DNA from: an uncultured Candidatus Saccharibacteria bacterium | Lineage (GTDB): Bacteria > Patescibacteriota > CAZHWT01 | DNA length: 64,000 nt | NCBI GenBank assembly: GCA_964554805.1 | Contig: CAZKPX010000001.1 | Coordinates: forward strand, 124,818 to 188,817 | Direction: 5' to 3' | Shown here: in pieces, positions 5,556 through 63,785 of the stretch | How the letters are laid out: every line of letters starts with the position of its first letter | Position numbering within the stretch: position 1 is the stretch's first letter | Position numbers and translations under genes: made by a program | Notes under the pieces: generated by a model | Told to the model about the DNA's origin: nothing | The model's database searches: none | The model's input: the letters and a program-made list of their open reading frames with translations, nothing else

Positions 5556-6237
5556 GGCGAGGTCCTCCTTGTCGACGAGCTGGTTGTGGAGCAGATGAGT
5601 CTACATTCTGAGCCTGATCCTTATCGCGATGGATCCAAACCTTAACACCGATGGTGCCATAGGAGGTCATAGCTGTGTCGGAAGCGAAGTCGATATTGGC
5701 ACGAAGGGTGTGGAGTGGGATAGTGCCGATACTCTTTTTCTCACTTCGAGCAATATCAGCGCCATTGAGACGACCGCTGATCATAATCTTGACTCCCTTG
5801 GCGCCTGCTGACATGGTGCGCTCGGCAGTCATGTTAATAGCACGACGAGGGGACATACGACGCTCAATCATCTCAGCAACATTGCGGGCTACCAACGTAG
5901 CGTACAAATCAGGGCGACGGACTTCAATGATGTTGAGCTTGAGCTTTTCACCATTTAGGCGAGACTGCAATTCAGCCTTAAGAGCTTCGGAGCTAGCACC
6001 GCCTCGACCAATAACCATACCTGGCTTGGCGACGTGGACATTGATAGTAATTTCGTTCACAGAACGCTCGATCTCAACACGCTGACAACCAGCATTCTTG
6101 AGCTTTTTGGTGATGTAATCACGCAATTCCAAATCCTTGTGCAACAACTCAACAAATCGCTTGCTGTCGAACCAGGTTGAACTCCAGTTTTTGGTTAAAG
6201 CTAAGCGAAGGCCTAGCGGGTGTGTTTTATGACCCAT
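5548..6237 (-). CDS. rpsC: 30S ribosomal protein S3
   Basis: [12 protein letters not shown]... KH domain followed by the S3 C-terminal domain. Confidence 0.9.
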
Positions 6238-6719
6238 TATTCTGTACCTTTTTCTGTGCTGCTTTTAGCAGCGGTGACGCGCGACGAGCGACGAGCGACG
6301 GGTTTGGTTTTCTTGTCGCTTGTTGCTTGTTGCTTGTTGCTTGCTTTTGCTTCGGCTAAGGCGGCGCGGCGCTTGCCGAGAATCAGTGGCTCATCTGTCA
6401 ATATGACGCGGACATGAGATGTGCGCTTCATTATAGACATGCCACGACCGCGAGAAGCTGCGCGCATTCTCTTGAGTGTTGGCCCTTCGCCAATTTCAAG
6501 AGTACGGATCCGCAGATTGCTCACAGGTAACTGATGATTGTTAGTAGCGTTTGCAATTGCAGATTGTATCACATCTTGGACAGTTTTGGCAGCCCTCAAA
6601 TTCATGAGGCTCAAAGCGTTGACGGCTTCGGTTGGTGAAAGGTCACGAACTGCAGTGGCTACAAGGCGAACCTTGCGTGGCGACTGACGGACGTACCGAG
6701 CGGAGGCAACAACGTTCAT
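6237..6719 (-). CDS. rplV: 50S ribosomal protein L22 with basic C-terminal extension
   Basis: L22 core. The C-terminal tail is encoded by the GCGACGAG repeat region at 6271-6345. Confidence 0.85.
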   Translation of the reverse strand: MNVVASARYVRQSPRKVRLVATAVRDLSPTEAVNALSLMNLRAAKTVQDVIQSAIANATNNHQLPVSNLRIRTLEIGEGPTLKRMRAASRGRGMSIMKRTSHVRVILTDEPLILGKRRAALAEAKASNKQQATSDKKTKPVARRSSRVTAAKSSTEKGTE

Positions 6720-14102: not shown

Positions 14103-14537
14103 TTAGGAAGCCTTGGCTCCCTTTACTACTTCAACCTTCTTGGCGCCATATAGTGAACGAGACTGACGACGCTTTTCAACGCCCTTGGCATCGAGAACAC
14201 CACGAATAATGTGATACTTCACACCTGGCAAATCTTTAACACGACCGCCGCGAACAAGAACGATTGAGTGTTCCTGTAGGTTGTGGCCTTCGCCTGGAAT
14301 GTAGGCAGTAACCTCTTGCTTGTTGGACAAGCGAACACGAGCAACCTTACGCAAAGCTGAGTTAGGCTTTTTTGGAGTCATGGTTTTGACGATGGTGCAG
14401 ACACCGCGCTTTTGGGGGTTGGTGGTAACACTGCTCTTGCGCTTGTTAGAGTTGTAACTACGACGCAGGGCTGCAGCCTTGACTTTGGTATTTTTGCTGG
14501 AACGTCCTTTGCGGACAAGTTGGTTAATTGTTGGCAT
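14103..14537 (-). CDS. rpsL: 30S ribosomal protein S12 (144 aa, with an internal basic insertion)
   Basis: [12 protein letters not shown]... and the [26 protein letters not shown] motifs. Confidence 0.9.
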
Positions 14538-14671
14538 ACATGATTGCTCTTAAATAATTTTATTCTTGCTAATGATATTTTGCTAAAAACTTAATCTAAT
14601 TTCAGTCAACCTCACGATTGGATCGGAGTAAAAATTGCGCCCTGCTTTTAAGTGGGCGCTCAACAGGGGGG

Positions 14672-14700
14672 ATTATATACAAAAATCAGTGACGGGTCAA
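14672..14700 (-). promoter_or_regulatory. Sigma70-like promoter for the rpsL (str) operon: TTGACC, 17-nt spacer, TATAAT
   Basis: On the minus strand: cTTGACCcgtcactgatttttgtaTATAATcc. This is a perfect -35/-10 consensus with 17-bp spacing, about 135 nt upstream of the rpsL ATG. Confidence 0.55.
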
Positions 14701-14718
14701 GCCCCATTCTGCTTTATG

Positions 14719-14750
14719 GAGCGACGAGCGACAGGCTACGGGCGACGGGG
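14719..14750. repeat. Copy of the dispersed GCGACGAGCGACRGG heptad-repeat element
   Basis: GAGCGACGAGCGACAGGCTACGGGCGACGGGG. Related copies lie at 6271-6302, 34489-34520, 50001-50038, 51860-51889 and 60165-60194. Confidence 0.6.
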
Positions 14751-14822
14751 AAGAAATTGCTCAAAACTTAGGCAAATAATACCCCTCCTCTAGACCTCGG
14801 GGTTGTTTGCTAAATGGTGGGG

Positions 14823-14854
14823 AATCAGAGCTGGCTAGGTGGCCAGCTCTGATT
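14823..14854 (-). terminator. 12-bp perfect inverted repeat (AATCAGAGCTGG / CCAGCTCTGATT) overlapping the stop codon of the 229-aa gene
   Basis: Palindrome seen directly. The TAG stop (14835-14837) falls in the loop. There is no strong U tract, so the function is uncertain. Confidence 0.4.
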
Positions 14855-15524
14855 CGGCGTCCTGTCGAACTTTCTCTTCGATCAGCCTGATGGTCTCATC
14901 CTCAGTGTTAGTCATCATGCCATACAGCAACTGCTGTATGGGGAGTCCTGCTTGACGATAGGGGGCGTAAAAGAACCTCTCGAAGTAATCCCGGATTCGC
15001 CAAGTGACGGTTGAATCAGTGTCCGGATTGAGTTGGCGGAACAAGTCTCCTTCAAATACTCGACTATCTATTTGTCGCATAAATTCAAAGATTTGATTGT
15101 CTCCAAATCTCTGAATGAGTAGTTCTGGATGCTGAGTGGCTTCCAGAGACACACTGATTGCAACCCAGCATAGCTCGACTTGATGGCGGTCGTTTAATGA
15201 CCAGACTAGTCGGATAGATAGAAGATCTACTTCTGACTGTCGCAGATTGAGAACCAGACCAAAGCCGGGCAAATAGGTATCTTGGTCACCTACTTTGTCA
15301 TATGTTTCAGGGATGTATGTCTCCAAGCCTACTGCTACCCGGTAGTCGCTATCTGGGTGGAGTATGCACCACTGTCCATAGCTAAAGTCGAGGTGCGGAC
15401 TGCCGTCCTTTGGATCCAAGCGCCTATCCGGATGGATAATGGCTTTTATCATTTCCATCAGATCTTCAAGCTGGACAATACCAGCTTTATAGTCTCGCTC
15501 TTCACTCATTGCCCTGCTCTCCAC
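14835..15524 (-). CDS. Hypothetical protein (229 aa), first gene of the accessory island
   Basis: Long ORF between the rpsL promoter and the island. No recognisable family. Confidence 0.5.
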   Translation of the reverse strand: MESRAMSEERDYKAGIVQLEDLMEMIKAIIHPDRRLDPKDGSPHLDFSYGQWCILHPDSDYRVAVGLETYIPETYDKVGDQDTYLPGFGLVLNLRQSEVDLLSIRLVWSLNDRHQVELCWVAISVSLEATQHPELLIQRFGDNQIFEFMRQIDSRVFEGDLFRQLNPDTDSTVTWRIRDYFERFFYAPYRQAGLPIQQLLYGMMTNTEDETIRLIEEKVRQDAESELAT

Positions 15525-15654
15525 TGGCCGCCTGATTACGGCGTGGCCATTCTATAGCGATTCATTGGTAATGTCAAAAAAGTGACGGACGACGAAGTTT
15601 CAACTAACCTAAAATCATAGCTATAGGCAAAACTACGTCTTAAGCCAATGGTTT

Positions 15655-15688
15655 TTGGCTGAAGGTTGTTAGATGATGTGATACAATG
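15655..15688 (+). promoter_or_regulatory. Candidate extended -10 promoter (TGaTACAAT) for a small plus-strand transcription unit
   Basis: tgtgATACAAT at 15679-15687. The -35 is weak (TTGGCT at non-optimal spacing). Confidence 0.3.
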
Positions 15689-15740
15689 TGGCGGCCTTGA
15701 GGGTCAGGGCGAGACAGATTGGAAGAGTTTGGAGGAGATC

Positions 15741-15938
15741 GTGCTGCTTGAAAAAATTGTAAATGGGACTCCATTTCAATTGCTGGCGACTGCAGTGCTG
15801 GCGGTTGGTGTGGTCAGAGTCATCGCTGCGAATCGTGGGCTACGGCCTCGCCAAACAAATACGGGACGGCCTGGAAGACAGACGGCAGGACCAAGGCGGG
15901 AGCTCGTCCGGTTAAAAATTCATCCGATTGAAATCTAG
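15741..15938 (+). CDS. Small ORF (65 aa, GTG start): hydrophobic helix followed by an Arg/Pro-rich tail
   Basis: GGAGG RBS (15731-15735) sits 5 nt before the GTG. The protein is VLLEKIVNGTPFQLLATAVLAVGVVRVIAANRGLRPRQTNTGRPGRQ.... A strong terminator follows. The ATG at 15666 on the ORF track lies inside the candidate promoter. Confidence 0.35.
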   Translation: MLLEKIVNGTPFQLLATAVLAVGVVRVIAANRGLRPRQTNTGRPGRQTAGPRRELVRLKIHPIEI

Positions 15939-15968
15939 CAGGCTGCTACAGTCATGCGTTTGCAAGTT

Positions 15969-16007
15969 GAGCCCGACCAGACATTTAAACTGGTCGGGCT
16001 ATCTTTT
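15969..16007 (+). terminator. Rho-independent terminator (AGCCCGACCAG-loop-CTGGTCGGGCT plus a T run)
   Basis: 11-bp perfect stem followed by ATCTTTTTG. Confidence 0.6.
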
Positions 16008-16019
16008 TGACCATTAATC

Positions 16020-16046
16020 TTACCTATAGGCTTATTATGGTATAAT
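16020..16046 (+). promoter_or_regulatory. Extended -10 promoter (TGgTATAAT) upstream of the 111-aa gene
   Basis: ttattaTGGTATAATtaat at 16038-16046, about 95 nt upstream of the ATG at 16143. Confidence 0.45.
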
Positions 16047-16142
16047 TAATTTAAGATTGATGAGCTGAGAACTAGTGAGGAGGGTAGCACGGGTCTTGAT
16101 TGTGGATTGGACTGAGTCGATCGATATCGACTGGAGGCGGCC

Positions 16143-16478
16143 ATGTCATGGGTAAAATCCTGGTGGGCGGGGCTCTGCGATTTTTTTGTTAGCCCATTCG
16201 ACTTCAGCATGTCTTTCCCTGATGAGCAGGGAGTAATCCACTCCGTTGTGAGCCGAGACGGCAAAGATTTGTTTGAAGCCGTCGACGCTATCAACCTCAA
16301 ACCGATGGCGGCTTATAGCCCGCTTTTCGATCAGAATGTGGTACGGATACCTTTGGATGAAACCTTAAAACTCCAAGAGGGTTGGAGGGTGGAGTTCGAG
16401 AAGGGCTTTGCTCGTCATGAGCAAGCGCTATTCCAATCGTTTATCAACAACCCTCTGGAGTACGGGCCGGGAGTGTAG
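16143..16478 (+). CDS. Hypothetical protein (111 aa)
   Basis: ORF with a promoter upstream and a terminator downstream. No family recognised. Confidence 0.5.
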   Translation: MSWVKSWWAGLCDFFVSPFDFSMSFPDEQGVIHSVVSRDGKDLFEAVDAINLKPMAAYSPLFDQNVVRIPLDETLKLQEGWRVEFEKGFARHEQALFQSFINNPLEYGPGV

Positions 16479-16549
16479 AGTAGCTGTCGACTTCGCGGAT
16501 GTTTTACGAGAGCTTTTTCCGGAGAGACGTCGCTTGAATGTTAGATGAA

Positions 16550-16589
16550 GGGCCATAGCAAAAAAATGCTATGGCCCTCGTTCATTTTT
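16550..16589 (+). terminator. Rho-independent terminator (GGGCCATAGC-A7T-GCTATGGCCC plus T-rich tail)
   Basis: 10-bp perfect stem followed by TCGTTCATTTTT. Confidence 0.6.
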
Positions 16590-16669
16590 GCACAAGAGAA
16601 TCTTTGCTTTTTGAATTGCTAAGTGGTATATAGAAGTCATAGATTTTGGTTTGAGACAAGGGAGGAACC

Positions 16670-17215
16670 ATGTCGCCGCATGTTGGCCTCTCGTTGCACG
16701 AGGGGCTCAATGACTCAGATGACCTGAAGCGATACACTACTAGTTCGTTTGCATTTAAGAGCAAGGCGGACGGAGTATGGTATCTCATTGAATGCCGGGA
16801 GGATAACTGGGTCTATGACTACCGCGGTAGCAGCTGGCTGCGGAGTATGGTTGGCAAATCCATCCATAAGCACCCCAACCGCCAAGTGGTGGAAGATCTC
16901 CGAAAAATGCGCAATCGGATAACTCAAGACACTTTTGCGGACGACGATGCTAAGATTGATGAGAAAGCCAGACAAGTGGATTTGAGGCCGCTACTACGCT
17001 GGTACTGGAATCCGTGGGATTTGTTTTGGATTGGAGTGTGTATCGTAATTCTCCTGGCTTGGGTGATGGTGAATATGGCCTTTGTGGTCGGTGTTCAGCT
17101 GAAGGAGATATGGCGAGATCCTCGATGGTACTGGGGCTGGTATATGCAGGGTGTCCGTCGGAGAATTCAACCTGTGTGGAGAAAGTGTGCCCAGGCACTG
17201 CGCTTCCACCAATGA
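16670..17215 (+). CDS. Hypothetical membrane-anchored protein (181 aa) with a Trp-rich C-terminal TM region
   Basis: AGGGAGGAA RBS before the ATG. Soluble N-terminal part, then WYWNPWDLFWIGVCIVILLAWVMVNMAFVVGV..WYWGWY. Confidence 0.55.
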   Translation: MSPHVGLSLHEGLNDSDDLKRYTTSSFAFKSKADGVWYLIECREDNWVYDYRGSSWLRSMVGKSIHKHPNRQVVEDLRKMRNRITQDTFADDDAKIDEKARQVDLRPLLRWYWNPWDLFWIGVCIVILLAWVMVNMAFVVGVQLKEIWRDPRWYWGWYMQGVRRRIQPVWRKCAQALRFHQ

Positions 17216-17229
17216 TAGAAATGTCTGCG

Positions 17230-17266
17230 GCCCGTCTCGAAATTCGAGGCGGGCTATTTTGTTATT
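17230..17266 (+). terminator. Rho-independent terminator (GCCCGTCTCG-AAATT-CGAGGCGGGC plus TATTTTGTTATT)
   Basis: 10-bp stem with one G-U pair, followed by a U-rich tail. Confidence 0.55.
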
Positions 17267-17348
17267 AAAAGTAGCAAGCGTCTTGATTATAGACTTATAG
17301 TATGTTATATTTCGTGTAGTCTTTTGGGTTTCTTTCAATGAAGGAGAA

Positions 17349-17786
17349 GTGCTGGTGGCCAGACAGACTATTTTTGCAACTGGGGAGAGGTATGATGCTA
17401 TTCGCCGAGCCGAGGCTCGAGGCGAAATTTCGGCCCAATTGGCCCAATTGGAGCGACGACGGCAAAAAGCGAGCATCAATGGGTCTCAGCCAACGGTAAC
17501 GTCCAAAATCATGGACTACCTTTTTGGCTGGACCATTAGCGATCGGTGCTACATTGGTCACGGCGAAGTGTTGGCTGTTGAATGCCACAAACCCGCCCGA
17601 GGGGGCGACTTGCAGTATCGGTGGCTCGAACACTGGGAGACTGCAGGGGGTGTTCTCAATGACAAACCATGGCAGTCTTTTGGTGAGATGGGGAAATGCT
17701 TGGGCAAGAGCACAGCCCTGAAGGTTCGCCAAGAACTGGCCAGAAAAAGACCGGAGATATTGCAGGTACGGATTCTGAAAGACTAA
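17349..17786 (+). CDS. Hypothetical protein (145 aa, GTG start)
   Basis: AAGGAGA RBS 4 nt upstream and a terminator downstream. A fully overlapping minus-strand ORF (17295-17813) was judged spurious. Confidence 0.45.
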   Translation: MLVARQTIFATGERYDAIRRAEARGEISAQLAQLERRRQKASINGSQPTVTSKIMDYLFGWTISDRCYIGHGEVLAVECHKPARGGDLQYRWLEHWETAGGVLNDKPWQSFGEMGKCLGKSTALKVRQELARKRPEILQVRILKD

Positions 17787-17817
17787 GAATCTGGACCGCT
17801 GCATCCGTAACAACTAT

Positions 17818-17864
17818 GAGGGTTGGTTAGCAATTTGGCTAACCAACCCTCGCATTCGTTTTAA
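17818..17864 (+). terminator. Strong rho-independent terminator (14-bp perfect stem GAGGGTTGGTTAGC / GCTAACCAACCCTC plus GCATTCGTTTTAAAAG)
   Basis: Inverted repeat and U tract seen directly. Confidence 0.65.
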
Positions 17865-18099
17865 AAGCATTATGTGATTGTAAGCACGCTAAGGCAGAGC
17901 TATAAAATCATATTGGCATGACTTGCACCTTAAAGTATGAACATGCAATAACTATTTAAAAGTATAAGATTTGACTCTTTGATCTACCTACTATATGGAG
18001 TATGAATTAGATACACCATACTCATTATATCTTATAGTTATTTACATAATGCTTCTTATATGTTAGTATACTATAGTTCCCTGTTGTTTAAGGCTTTGA

Positions 18100-18516
18100 A
18101 TGAAAGGTTGTCATGTGGGCTTAAACACACAGCTAATAGCTGTTCCTGGCGATATGGCATTGCCTAACCACCTGAGCAGCGAATGGCTTGATGAGCATGA
18201 ATCAGAGATCTGCTATCTAGCAGAATGGAGAAAGGACTATGTCCTACACAGATGGTTCACTGCAAAGGTCGAGCATGCTTCTACCCTAGACCATGAAGGG
18301 TCGGGGTGTCGTATCGTTCGACAAGTTCTCGAGGAGCTTTTGGAAGTAGTGCGAACTATTCGCACCTGCACTAAAACCGAAGCAGAGATACTGTTTCCTG
18401 GTGCTTGGGGTTCGGGTCATCTTCCAGATGAAGATTACCTGGATTCAATCGAAGGCTCTCTGACTGACGCTCTGGCTCACCGAGATATTACAAATTTTTA
18501 CTACATTGCATCCTAG
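18100..18516 (+). CDS. Hypothetical protein (138 aa), preceded by a 220-bp AT-rich segment
   Basis: ORF followed by a terminator. No family recognised. Confidence 0.45.
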   Translation: MKGCHVGLNTQLIAVPGDMALPNHLSSEWLDEHESEICYLAEWRKDYVLHRWFTAKVEHASTLDHEGSGCRIVRQVLEELLEVVRTIRTCTKTEAEILFPGAWGSGHLPDEDYLDSIEGSLTDALAHRDITNFYYIAS

Positions 18517-18540
18517 CTTTGGGAATGCAGTGGAAGATGT

Positions 18541-18581
18541 CCCCGACTTTGGCTTGCTTGAGTCGGGGATCTTTCATTTTT
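18541..18581 (+). terminator. Rho-independent terminator (CCCCGACT...AGTCGGGG plus ATCTTTCATTTTT)
   Basis: 8-bp stem and a T run. Confidence 0.55.
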
Positions 18582-18619
18582 ACTCATTATTAATTATCAA
18601 GATACCAGTTATATACAAC

Positions 18620-18648
18620 AAAACCCCACCTACAATAGGTGGGGTTTT
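18620..18648 (-). terminator. rpoC terminator: perfect hairpin AAAACCCCACCT-ACAAT-AGGTGGGGTTTT (reads as a terminator on either strand)
   Basis: 12-bp perfect stem flanked by A and T runs, 28 nt after the rpoC stop. Confidence 0.6.
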
Positions 18649-18675
18649 GTAATTGATAATTCTTAATCCGCAGAT

Positions 18676-21600
18676 TTACGAATCGATGCGAGCGGAGTCG
18701 CCGGTTGGGATGAGGCGGCCGATGATGACGTTCTCTTTTAGTCCAACCAGACGATCGATCTTGCCCTGGGTAGCGGCATTGGTTAGGACGCCGGTGGTTT
18801 CCTGGAAGGAAGCGGCTGATAACCAAGACTCGGTTAAGAGTGACGAGCGGGTAATACCGAGAATAGTCATCTCAGCAGTAGCCACTTCTCCACCCTCAGC
18901 TAAGATGCGGCCGTTTTCCTCTTCGAACTTGATGCGCTCAATGAGGTCTCCTGGCATCATACTGGAGTCACCGGAAGACATGACACGAACCTTATCGAAC
19001 ATTTTGCGAACGATGATTTCGGCATGCTTGCTCTGGATGTCGATACCTTGGCTCTTATAGACGTTCTGAACTTCTTGCAGCAGATACTGCTGAACAGCTT
19101 TGACGCCGCGGATAGCCAACATTTCTCGGAGGTCGAAGTGACCTTCGGTGAGAGCTTGACCGGCTAGAACAGTTGCGCCATTGGCAACGGCTACTACTGA
19201 TCCAATCGAGATGACGTATTCACGCTCATCACGAAGCTGGTAAGATAGAGTGATGGTAGTCTTCTGGCCGGACTTGGTTGCCACTTCAACAGTAGCATTG
19301 TCGCGGGCTTTGACTTCACCGTCGGCAGTCTTGTAGATAGGTTGACCCTTAACTACTTCAGCGCCGTTCTTAACAAGAGCTTTTTCGTCTTCTTTAAGAG
19401 TAATAGACTCGCTCAAGATTTCGATAGACTCTACCTTGGCGATGGTGCGGCCGTTTTCTTGCTTATCAAGAGTAACAGCACCGCTGATTTCTGACAGAAT
19501 GGCTGGATCTTTAGGTGTGCGAGCTTCGAAAAGCTCTTCAACACGTGGCAGACCCTGAGTAATATCTTTACCAGCAACGCCACCAGTGTGGAAGGTACGC
19601 ATGGTTAGCTGTGTACCAGGCTCACCGATTGACTGAGCGGCGATAACACCAACTGCAGTACCCATCTTAACCAACTGTCGGCTACCGAGATCTCGACCAT
19701 AACAGAGAGCACAGATGCCGTATTTGGCTTGGCATGTCAGGGCGGTGCGGTAGGTGACTTCAGCTACGTCAGCTGCTTCAACAATTTGCTTCATTTCAGC
19801 TTCGCCGATTAAAGTACCGGCTGTCATGACAACCTTATCCTTGGCATCAACGATGTCTCGGGCGATGACACGGCCGAGAGCCTGATCTTGCCAACCATTG
19901 GTTTGGGTGGAGACTGTTAGGCCATCCTTGGTGCGACAGTCGTCGGTACGGATGATGACATCATGAGCAACGTCGACTAAACGACGGGTCAAGTAACCAG
20001 CTTCGGCGGTCATCAAGGCGGTATCGATCAATCCCTTACGGGCGGCACGAGCACCGATGAATCCGTCAAAAGCGGTAGAGCCTTCGATAATATTGGTCTT
20101 GATTGGAGTTTCGATAAGTCGACCCATTGAGTCGTTCATCAATCCTCGCATACCGCTGAGCTGCTTGATGGTATCGCGGTTGGCACGACCAGCCTTGGAG
20201 GCGACGATGAAGGATAGGATGGAATGGGGATCGAGTTGCTCGATAGCCAAGTTTCCAACTTCTTCATTAACGCGGCTCCATAGATCGATGATCAAAGCGC
20301 GACGTTCGCGAGCAGTGGTCAATCCACGTCGGTAGTTCTTTTCGATAACGTCAAGTTCTTTGTTGGCCAAAGCCAGAATCTCGGTACGTTCTACAGGAGT
20401 GTGGAAGTCTCCGACACCAAAACTAGTACCAGCGATGGTGGAATAGTGACGACCAAGTTCCTTGAAGGCGTCGACGAGCAAGACCGTCTGATCGGTTCCG
20501 AACTGATCAAATGACTGAGCCAGAAGGTCGCGCATGGCACGACGATCAACTGCACTGTTGTGGTAGCGCAACTCAACTGGTAGAACCTCGTTGAGATACA
20601 GACGACCAACAGTGGTTTCGACCGGCTGGCCATCCATATAAATGGTGACCGGAGCTTGGATGTGAACAGTCTTGTTTTGCTCAGCCAAAATAGCTTCGGC
20701 GCTGGACAGGAAGGTGCGACCCTTGCCCTTAGCTTGATCGTTGGCGACGGTTAGGTAGTACAGACCAATGGCAAACTCGTTCTTCATGTCGATAACTGGA
20801 GCACCATCAGACAACTTAAGCATGTTGTGAGGAGCCAGCATTAAACGCTCAGCTTCTTCAATAGACTTAGATGACAGTGGAATGTGGACAGCCATCATGT
20901 CTCCGTCGAAGTCAGCATTGAAGGCGTTACAGACTGCAGGGTGCAGCTTGATAGCGTTGCCCTCGATCAGGACTGGATAGAAGCCTTGGATACCAAGACG
21001 GTGAAGGGTAGGGGCACGGTTGAGGAGGATTGGGTGATTTACCGAAACCTGCTCGAGGATGTCCCAGACTTCAGTGCCGCGACGTTCGAGAACGTTTTTG
21101 GCGCTCTTGACGTTAGGGGCGAACCCTTGGGCGATGATTTCTCGGAGAACGAAAGGCTTGAACAATTGGAGAGCCATTTCTTTGGGCAGACCACACTGGT
21201 CAAGACGCAGCTCAGGACCAACGACGATAACTGAACGACCGGAATAGTCGACACGCTTACCAAGTAGGTTTTGGCGGAAACGACCTTGCTTACCCTTAAG
21301 CATTTCGGACAGTGAACGCATCTTCTGCGCGGCTCGACGAGTGGTAGCTCGCTTTTCGCGCTGAGATGAGTCGATCAACGCGTCAACTGCTTCTTGGAGC
21401 ATGCGCTTTTCGTTGCGCAAGATAATCTCAGGAGCACCGAGATCCATCAAACGACGAAGACGGTTGTTGCGGTTGATGACGCGACGATACAGGTCATTCA
21501 GATCTGAAGTGGCGAAACGACCACCGGATAACTGAACCATGGGACGCAACTCTGGTGGAATAACTGGTAAGACCGTGGTGATCATCCAAACCGGATTGAT

Positions 21601-22557
21601 ACGAGCCATCTTGAGGCCTTCAACGACACGCAGACGCTTGGTAGCCTTGGTGCGCTTTGCCAATGAAGGACTCTTGGTTTCCAATTTGAGCTGCTGAGCC
21701 AGTTCGTCCAAGTCAACGACTTCGAGGACGCGCATGATGGCTTCGGCACCCATGCCAACCTTGACAATGCTATCAGCATCCCAGAATGCTAGTTCGGCGT
21801 AATCATTTTCTGACAGAAGATCAAGTGGCTTAAGGGCCTTAATCTTGCTCTCTAGTTCATGGAATGACTTATCGAGCAGGGCTTGTTCTTTGGCAAGATC
21901 TTCGCGAAGAGAGCTGATGCGCTTCTTAAGGTTAAGATGACGCTCTTGCTGACGGATTTCGGTTGATTCGGCTTTGGACTTCTTGCTCTCGGCAGCAACT
22001 TCATCAGCAGCGGCTTCAATTTCTTGAATGCGCTCGTCAGTATCTTGCTGTAATTCTAATTTCTTTTCGGCTAATTTGGTGTGCAACTGGTTAACTAGTT
22101 GTTCACGAGCACCTTCATCGACCTGCTCAATAAGGTATTGGGCGAAGTAGATAACGCTTTCCATGTTGCGAGGACTGATGTCGAGCAACAGAGATAGTTT
22201 GGAAGGAGCGCCGCGGAAGAACCAGACGTGAGCTACAGGGGCGGCCAGGTTGATATGAGCCATACGCTCACGTCGGACCTTGGAATGAGTGACTTCGACA
22301 CCACACTTATCACAGATAACACCCTTATAGCGAATACGCTTGTATTTACCACAGTAGCATTCGAAATCGCGAACCGGGCCAAAAATACGTTCGTCAAATA
22401 GACCGTCTTTTTCTGGCTTGAGGGTGCGATAGTTGATTGTCTCAGGCTTGGCAACTTCACCAAAAGACCATTGCTTAATGTCTTCTGGAGAAGCCAAGGT
22501 GATTTTTAAGGCCTGAAAGTCTTTTAACTCAGTCATATTAGGCATCCTCCTCTTCAT
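18676..22557 (-). CDS. rpoC: DNA-directed RNA polymerase subunit beta'
   Basis: 1293 aa. N-terminal zinc-binding CxxC...CxxC, NADFDGD catalytic motif, and C-terminal cysteines. Confidence 0.95.
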
Positions 22558-34610: not shown

Positions 34611-34681
34611 AGCGGATGAGAGGATTCGAACCTCCAGCCTTCCCAGGAGTCGGGATGCTCTGCCTTTTGAGCTTCATCCGC
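34611..34681 (-). tRNA. tRNA-like gene with a non-canonical anticodon arm (4-bp stem, loop GACUCCU); isotype unassigned, possibly a pseudo-tRNA
   Basis: Perfect 7-bp acceptor stem (GCGGATG/CATCCGC). D arm GCTC-AAAAGGCA-GAGC. T arm GGAGG-TTCGAAT-CCTCT. The anticodon region is 2 nt short and lacks U33 and R37. Confidence 0.5.
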
Positions 34682-63279: not shown

Positions 63280-63316
63280 GTAGAAATGCGAAAGCGCCGG
63301 GGGGGTTCCCCGGCGC
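63280..63316 (-). terminator. Terminator (GCGCCGGGG-GGGTT-CCCCGGCGC plus U tract) downstream of the 80-aa coiled-coil gene; copy 1 of a duplicated module
   Basis: 9-bp GC stem. The minus strand continues TTTCGCATTTCTAC. Confidence 0.5.
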
Positions 63317-63358
63317 CGTGATGGTGGCTTGGTTAGGCAGCTGATGACTATCAGGGAT

Positions 63359-63744: not shown

Positions 63745-63785
63745 GGTTTAAAACGAGAAAGCGCCGGGGAGATTTCCCCGGCGCT
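63745..63785 (-). terminator. Terminator (GCGCCGGGG-AGATTT-CCCCGGCGC plus U tract); copy 2 of the duplicated module, downstream of the partial gene
   Basis: The same stem sequence and flanks (GTGATGGTG..TTGGTT) as at 63280-63330. Confidence 0.5.

Follow-up and report, generated by a model that had tools for sequence, protein, structure and literature searches.

A probable stand-alone transcription unit with a candidate 65-codon reading frame in the rpsL-rpoC island of an uncultured Candidatus Saccharibacteria genome

A stand-alone transcription unit is probably present at 15679-16009 of the 64,000-nt stretch of DNA that was analyzed (hereafter, the window), as judged from its sequence signals. 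From these signals, and from their agreement with the neighboring cassettes, we infer transcription, translation, topology and activity as follows. The unit would be a single-gene cassette of ~315 nt, one of five plus-strand units in a 4.1-kb island without homologs between rpsL and rpoC. Transcription would begin at ~15694 from an extended -10 element that acts independently of a -35, and would end at the hairpin at 15970-16009. As its most likely product we propose a 65-aa peptide initiated from GGAGG-N5-GTG, the translation of which is put forward tentatively, at a little under an even chance. The peptide would be a membrane protein that crosses the bilayer once, through residues 11-31 as a helix, and leaves a short N-terminus on the outside; its cationic, disordered tail would be placed at the cytoplasmic face on the basis of the positive-inside rule. 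It may act at the membrane, for example by modulating a partner protein or by perturbing the bilayer. Features of the unit and of its surroundings are collected in Table 1.

Table 1. Predicted features of the candidate unit and of the island around it (positions refer to the window).
Feature	Position	Strand	Remarks
Extended -10 element, TGATACAAT	15679-15687	+	Predicted transcription start ~15693-15695
Shine-Dalgarno sequence, GGAGG	15731-15735	+	5-nt spacer to GTG 15741
65-codon candidate ORF, MLLEKIVNGTPFQLLATAVLAVGVVRVIAANRGLRPRQTNTGRPGRQTAGPRRELVRLKIHPIEI	15741-15938	+	GTG start; TAG stop at 15936-15938
Codons 11-31, predicted hydrophobic helix	15771-15833	+	Core FQLLATAVLAVGVVRVIAA
Codons 32-65, Arg/Pro/Gly/Thr-rich tail	15834-15935	+	Predicted disordered; 8 Arg, 1 Lys, 2 Glu
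Intrinsic terminator, AGCCCGACCAG/CTGGTCGGGCT, then ATCTTTTTG	Hairpin 15970-16000; whole 15970-16009	+	
224-aa gene	Island, divergent	-	
111-, 181-, 143- and 138-aa genes	Island	+	Each a single-gene unit with its own strong terminator
Terminators of the four plus-strand island genes	16549-16578; 17229-17255; 17817-17852; 18539-18570		

The ORF map of the window placed rpsL (14103-14537), rpsG, fusA and rpoC (18676-22557) on the minus strand. A search with the S7 protein among GTDB species representatives identified two assemblies labeled 'uncultured Candidatus Saccharibacteria' as the nearest genomes, with 86% and 79% identity to the S7 of the window. Gene order from rpsL onwards was shared with both genomes at ~80% amino acid identity, and synteny ended exactly upstream of rpsL. 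The interval 14538-18675 had no blastn or tblastx similarity to either of the two genomes, which places the unit inside an accessory island, as a preliminary description of this DNA had stated. Besides the unit, this 4.1-kb rpsL-rpoC spacer contained five genes without homologs.

No island protein had a significant match in Pfam, PHROG, PADLOC, NCBIfam or PDB sequence searches; the best PHROG match (E = 0.031) was to a family of unknown function. The 224-aa and 111-aa proteins, searched against 5.8 billion protein clusters, matched only themselves, and all four of the island proteins looked up in a 15-billion-protein collection were singleton clusters. The 224-aa protein additionally had no match in genome contigs, and its single-sequence AlphaFold2 model (pLDDT 49) was of insufficient quality for a fold search. 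No similarity to IMG/VR, INPHARED or PLSDB was found. Contigs from three sibling sequencing runs were 99.9-100% identical and represented the same strain, so that they held no diversity for conservation analysis. Altogether, the island is without homologs in the databases searched and is known from one strain only. Its codon usage was weak and foreign-looking overall.

The island was also considered as a series of integron cassettes. By inspection its hairpins are short, perfect, T-tailed terminators unlike attC, and none of its proteins had a Pfam match, hence no integrase; this reading was rejected. Two further observations concern the island. A 23-nt direct repeat, GTAGCAnGnGTCTTGATTnTnGA, occurred at 16084-16106 and 17271-17293 with 83% identity between the copies. 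The first copy belongs to the leader of the 111-aa gene and the second overlaps the -35 of the 143-aa gene; the repeat may be a shared operator for an island regulator. An AT-rich, ORF-free spacer of ~200 nt (17860-18060), which follows the bidirectional terminator at 17817-17852 and precedes the promoter of the 138-aa gene, had no Rfam match.

Each sequence element of the unit is weak when taken singly. The TGATACAAT promoter had no usable -35, with CTGAAG in that place. Sites with TGn and at least five of six matches to TATAAT numbered 22 on both strands of the window (128 kb of strand), and TGNTAHAAT was not enriched, with seven found against six expected. Three of the sites with TGn and at least five of six matches fell in the island (15679, 16038 and 17303), all of them on the plus strand and upstream of island units. 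On the minus strand, seven of ten extended -10 sites were upstream of host genes by our reading of the ORF map. The chance rate of a GGAGG with a start codon and an ORF of at least 60 aa was ~3 per 55 kb of strand (~0.015 per 280 nt). An ORF of at least 65 aa arose in 62% of dinucleotide shuffles of the gap that holds the unit, and one of at least 90 aa in 19%.

The terminator hairpin was predicted by folding to have an 11-bp stem, a 9-nt loop and a free energy of -20.8 to -21.5 kcal/mol; the automated terminator scan missed it because its loop is longer than 8 nt. It starts 32 nt past the stop codon of the ORF, and no other plus-strand gene lies upstream for it to terminate. Strong hairpin-plus-T terminators (-17 kcal/mol or stronger) numbered about 14 in the window, nearly all of them intergenic and 9-71 nt after a stop codon on the same strand. 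Five of these were inside the island, one behind each plus-strand unit.

Other hairpins were seen elsewhere in the window. Two near-identical GC-rich hairpins, GCGCCGGGG...CCCCGGCGC, each with a T-rich tail, were found 470 nt apart on the minus strand (63293-63317 and 63760-63785), one of them inside a plus-strand ORF. The L22 gene (ORF 6237-6719; its 160 aa are long for L22) contained an internal 22-bp stem at 6281-6333 (-36 kcal/mol) with GCGACGA / TTGTTGC heptamer-like repeats.

The layout of the unit was the same as that of its four plus-strand neighbors in the island. All four neighbors had a strong terminator, 14-71 nt past the stop codon; three of the four had a TG-extended -10, and three of the four a GGAGG or AGGAG ribosome-binding site 4-9 nt from the start codon. 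The 111-aa gene, with GGAGG at 16133 and ATG at 16143, repeated the GGAGG-N5-start arrangement of the unit itself. Of all stretches of the window that lack an ORF of at least 100 aa, the 618-nt gap in which the unit lies (15525-16142) was the longest, against a median of 126 nt. Multiplying the rates of promoter, ribosome-binding site with ORF, and terminator gave a joint chance of ~2e-3 after correction for the number of 350-nt windows, a rough product inferred on the assumption of independence. The conjunction of signals, the match to the layout of the neighboring cassettes and the position in the largest gene-free gap together make a stand-alone unit likely. The extended -10 promoter, the GGAGG with a GTG-initiated 65-codon ORF and the 11-bp-stem terminator that the preliminary description had listed were each found in the sequence (Table 1), and its description of them as one self-contained unit agrees with the arrangement predicted for the neighboring genes.

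The candidate ORF fills the interval from promoter to terminator. The frame is intact over the whole unit, with zero internal stops and no visible switch to a better frame, and frame +1 had only a marginally better codon score. The same frame is open upstream to a TTG at 15666 (90 aa), and this start was rejected on the grounds that it lies upstream of the predicted transcription start and overlaps the promoter. Two other ORFs were also set aside: a 50-aa ATG-initiated ORF in frame +1 (15763-15915) with no ribosome-binding site, and a 44-aa antisense ORF (15640-15774) with no signals.

No homolog of the 65-aa peptide was found among 5.8 billion protein clusters. An exhaustive HMMER search of 1.84 billion representatives returned three matches only, to eukaryotic lectin-repeat proteins; these were spurious and are not homologs, since a repeated 'VISANYGRRDRTTCSSGRP' motif inflates the score. 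Likewise, translated searches of metagenome, viral, phage and plasmid DNA yielded no homolog of the peptide, and neither did PDB sequences. No gene was called at 15741-15938 in an identical Logan contig, and the 65-aa and 90-aa products were both absent from the 15-billion-protein collection, whose coverage includes the NCBI record.

Codon statistics were unfavorable to coding. Under the host model the 65-codon ORF had a log-likelihood of -0.30 per codon; 99.7% of real 65-codon windows scored higher, and the median for out-of-frame ORFs was the same as this value. Small host genes used as controls (S10, L23, S19, L29 and a 61-aa ORF resembling S14) scored +0.13 to +0.49, and in each of them its own frame was clearly best. 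Under a model trained on the island, the ORF scored -0.04 versus 0.15 +/- 0.07 for held-out island genes, beneath all 49 control windows; frame +1 outscored the ORF frame, which was not the best of six. The synonymous codon choice of the ORF (-0.48) was the worst measured. The Arg-rich tail was the least coding-like part, with a sliding codon score of -0.5 to -0.67 over 15831-15890; only the first third of the frame, with ~0 to +0.3 over 15666-15760, scored like coding sequence. In the same frame upstream of the GTG, the 25 codons at 15666-15740 scored +0.30 under the island model and were more coding-like than the ORF, which hints at a longer ancestral gene or at short-sample noise.

Other measures were closer to those of genes. 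The amino acid composition of the ORF was protein-like, at the 27th percentile of real gene windows, a value as high being found in just 8% of out-of-frame ORFs. GC content at codon positions 1, 2 and 3 was 0.68, 0.48 and 0.45, and the high first position was as in island genes. By our informal odds, which are a judgement and not the output of a tool, the ribosome-binding site and ORF count ~10-30 to 1 for coding and the codon evidence ~6-20 to 1 against it. Taken together these odds lean slightly to a translated peptide, over a non-coding RNA, which is given roughly one chance in a handful or a little better, and a decayed remnant, which is rated somewhat lower still.

In the predicted peptide, the hydrophobic stretch is followed by 25 residues with seven Arg among them, and eight Arg fall in the 35-aa tail. 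The Kyte-Doolittle 19-residue mean reached a maximum of 2.08, as high as in 6% of spurious ORFs between 55 and 100 aa. Single-sequence AlphaFold2 modeled a helix at residues 11-31 (pLDDT ~87-91) followed by a disordered tail. Hydropathy and model are thus consistent with the single hydrophobic helix and Arg-rich tail (7 Arg in 25 residues) that had been read from the translation previously. A secreted cationic peptide, cleaved after VIAA, was also considered by eye; this reading was disfavored because export would be opposed by the Arg at +2 and by the strong positive charge at the mature N-terminus.

The best-surviving rival to a translated peptide is that the unit is transcribed and its product is a ~315-nt non-coding RNA, trans-acting or structural, in which the ORF and the GGAGG are incidental. 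This is an unlikely reading that still carries appreciable weight. The promoter and terminator signals stand whatever the coding status, the codon usage, above all the synonymous choice, is like that of non-coding sequence, the gene callers skipped the ORF, and an ORF of its length is common by chance in the shuffled gap. However, at the rate given above, chance seldom produces a perfect GGAGG-N5-start with an ORF of at least 60 aa behind it. Rfam 15 was searched with the whole window at gathering score and with the local region at relaxed E-values. For the unit it returned no match even at E up to 10, other than sub-threshold matches attributable to chance (greA leader, 15 bits against a threshold of 60; Guanidine-II, 14 bits against a threshold of 32), and ARAGORN found no tmRNA. 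Without the terminator the predicted fold had z = -0.9, with 19% of shuffles as stable; z was -3.1 with the terminator included, owing to the terminator hairpin. No copy or complementary target of note was present in the 64-kb window, and promoter positions indicated no overlap with the transcript of the divergent 224-aa gene.

The same searches turned up a third tRNA-like gene elsewhere in the window. It was detected by Rfam at 34611-34681 on the minus strand (50.6 bits) and has a shortened anticodon region; ARAGORN omitted it and reported only the adjoining Thr and Val tRNAs.

A decayed or non-functional remnant, either a former cassette with a drifted coding sequence or a coincidence of signals in an AT-rich spacer, is regarded as less probable again. 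The contrast between the coding-like 15666-15760 and the Arg-rich part of the ORF counts in its favor, conservation was found nowhere, the whole island shares the weak and foreign-looking codon usage, and the signals are weak one by one. Against decay, the frame is free of internal stops, and the marginally better frame +1 lacks a ribosome-binding site; the ribosome-binding site and terminator of the unit equal those of its neighbors in strength. A small, compact genome is, moreover, not expected to retain 600 nt of junk. Overall, the translated peptide remains the preferred reading of the unit.

One particular form of the coding reading is a type I toxin-antitoxin module, in which the mRNA of a membrane-damaging peptide is checked by an antisense RNA. 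Criteria used in searches for type I toxins are an ORF of less than 60-70 aa, a predicted transmembrane region and a polar or charged C-terminus; tandem or paralogous copies, and spacing from the flanking genes by no less than 400 nt on the upstream side and 250 nt on the downstream side, have served as heuristics that are not strict (PMC2887945). The peptide, if translated, would have less than 70 aa, a single helix that is predicted to be transmembrane and a C-terminus that is both polar and charged, and the unit stands alone in an accessory region. A predicted long-range helix between the 5' and 3' ends covers the ribosome-binding site with a probability of ~0.8-0.99; yet 19% of shuffles equaled or exceeded this occlusion, and two neighboring island genes had similar predicted occlusion of their ribosome-binding sites.

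Sequence signals for an antisense RNA did not support such a module. The best antisense promoter, TGCTAGATT (15940 to 15932), had only four of six matches and occurred at chance rate; the minus strand had no sigma-70 match over 15643-17240 and no terminator hairpin. The 64-kb window contained neither a tandem nor a paralogous copy, and the unit is separated from its flanking genes by 217 and 205 nt, less than the 400/250-nt heuristic. Pfam, NCBIfam, PHROGs and PADLOC gave no toxin family match; the sole PADLOC match was sub-threshold (13 bits, E = 0.0064), and the type I restriction specificity subunit that it pointed to does not belong to a toxin family. With 8 Arg the tail is both polar and cationic, yet at 35 aa, Pro/Gly-rich and without aromatics, it is far longer than, and unlike, the typical short C-terminal clusters (PMC2887945). 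Translation itself is also doubtful. The toxin-like label of the preliminary description was therefore not retained, given the lack of antisense signals, paralogs and toxin-family matches, the chance-level occlusion and the short gaps, and a type I module is considered very improbable. An equally low estimate is attached to the broader proposal that a Patescibacteria episymbiont here carries a working membrane-toxin cassette (type I-like, or encoding a stand-alone peptide for lysis or host interaction), with the island as an array of autonomous cassettes without homologs, acquired or formed de novo. Among the papers searched, none names type I toxins together with Saccharibacteria. Finally, the unit is unlikely to be a leader or attenuator of the 111-aa gene, given that the TGGTATAAT promoter of this gene lies downstream of the terminator at 15970-16009.

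A real peptide would be another small membrane protein missed by annotation, in a poorly understood episymbiotic lineage, and the variable island that encodes it might bear on host interaction. At present, the value of the unit is as a flagged candidate for transcriptomes and proteomes of the source population, which is represented in SRR16798009, SRR16798008 and SRR16797978.

Among known systems, morons are genes that bring along a promoter and a terminator of their own and are found inserted among other genes (PMC3594210). The unit is moron-like in having its own promoter-like element and a putative strong intrinsic terminator, in lying among similar single-gene units, in codon usage unlike that of host core genes and in its absence from the nearest relatives. 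Unlike morons, it occupies a chromosomal site between rpoC and rpsL, with no recognizable phage or prophage, integrase or structural genes. By analogy, its layout most resembles a moron-type autonomous cassette, here outside a phage context.

With type I toxins such as Hok, Fst/Ldr, TisB, Ibs, ZorO and TxpA the candidate shares a small ORF of less than 70 aa, one predicted transmembrane helix, a partly comparable charged or polar C-terminus, a stand-alone unit and the fact of having been missed by gene callers (PMC2887945, PMC6563280, PMC3919570). Unlike these toxins, the unit is without antitoxin RNA signals, tandem copies, family similarity or above-chance occlusion, and it combines a long, 35-aa Arg/Pro/Gly-rich tail with flanking gaps shorter than the heuristic.

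Likeness in size (less than ~70 aa), in a single helix, in a positive flank suggesting an N-out/C-in orientation and in having been missed by annotation is seen with unannotated single-helix small membrane proteins. Small membrane proteins of known families are conserved, and are usually encoded in an operon with, or beside, the complex that they regulate. Unlike these, the peptide has no homolog and its neighbors have no homologs of known function, so that no partner can be proposed. Among unannotated small membrane proteins the peptide would be an ordinary one, standing outside every named family.
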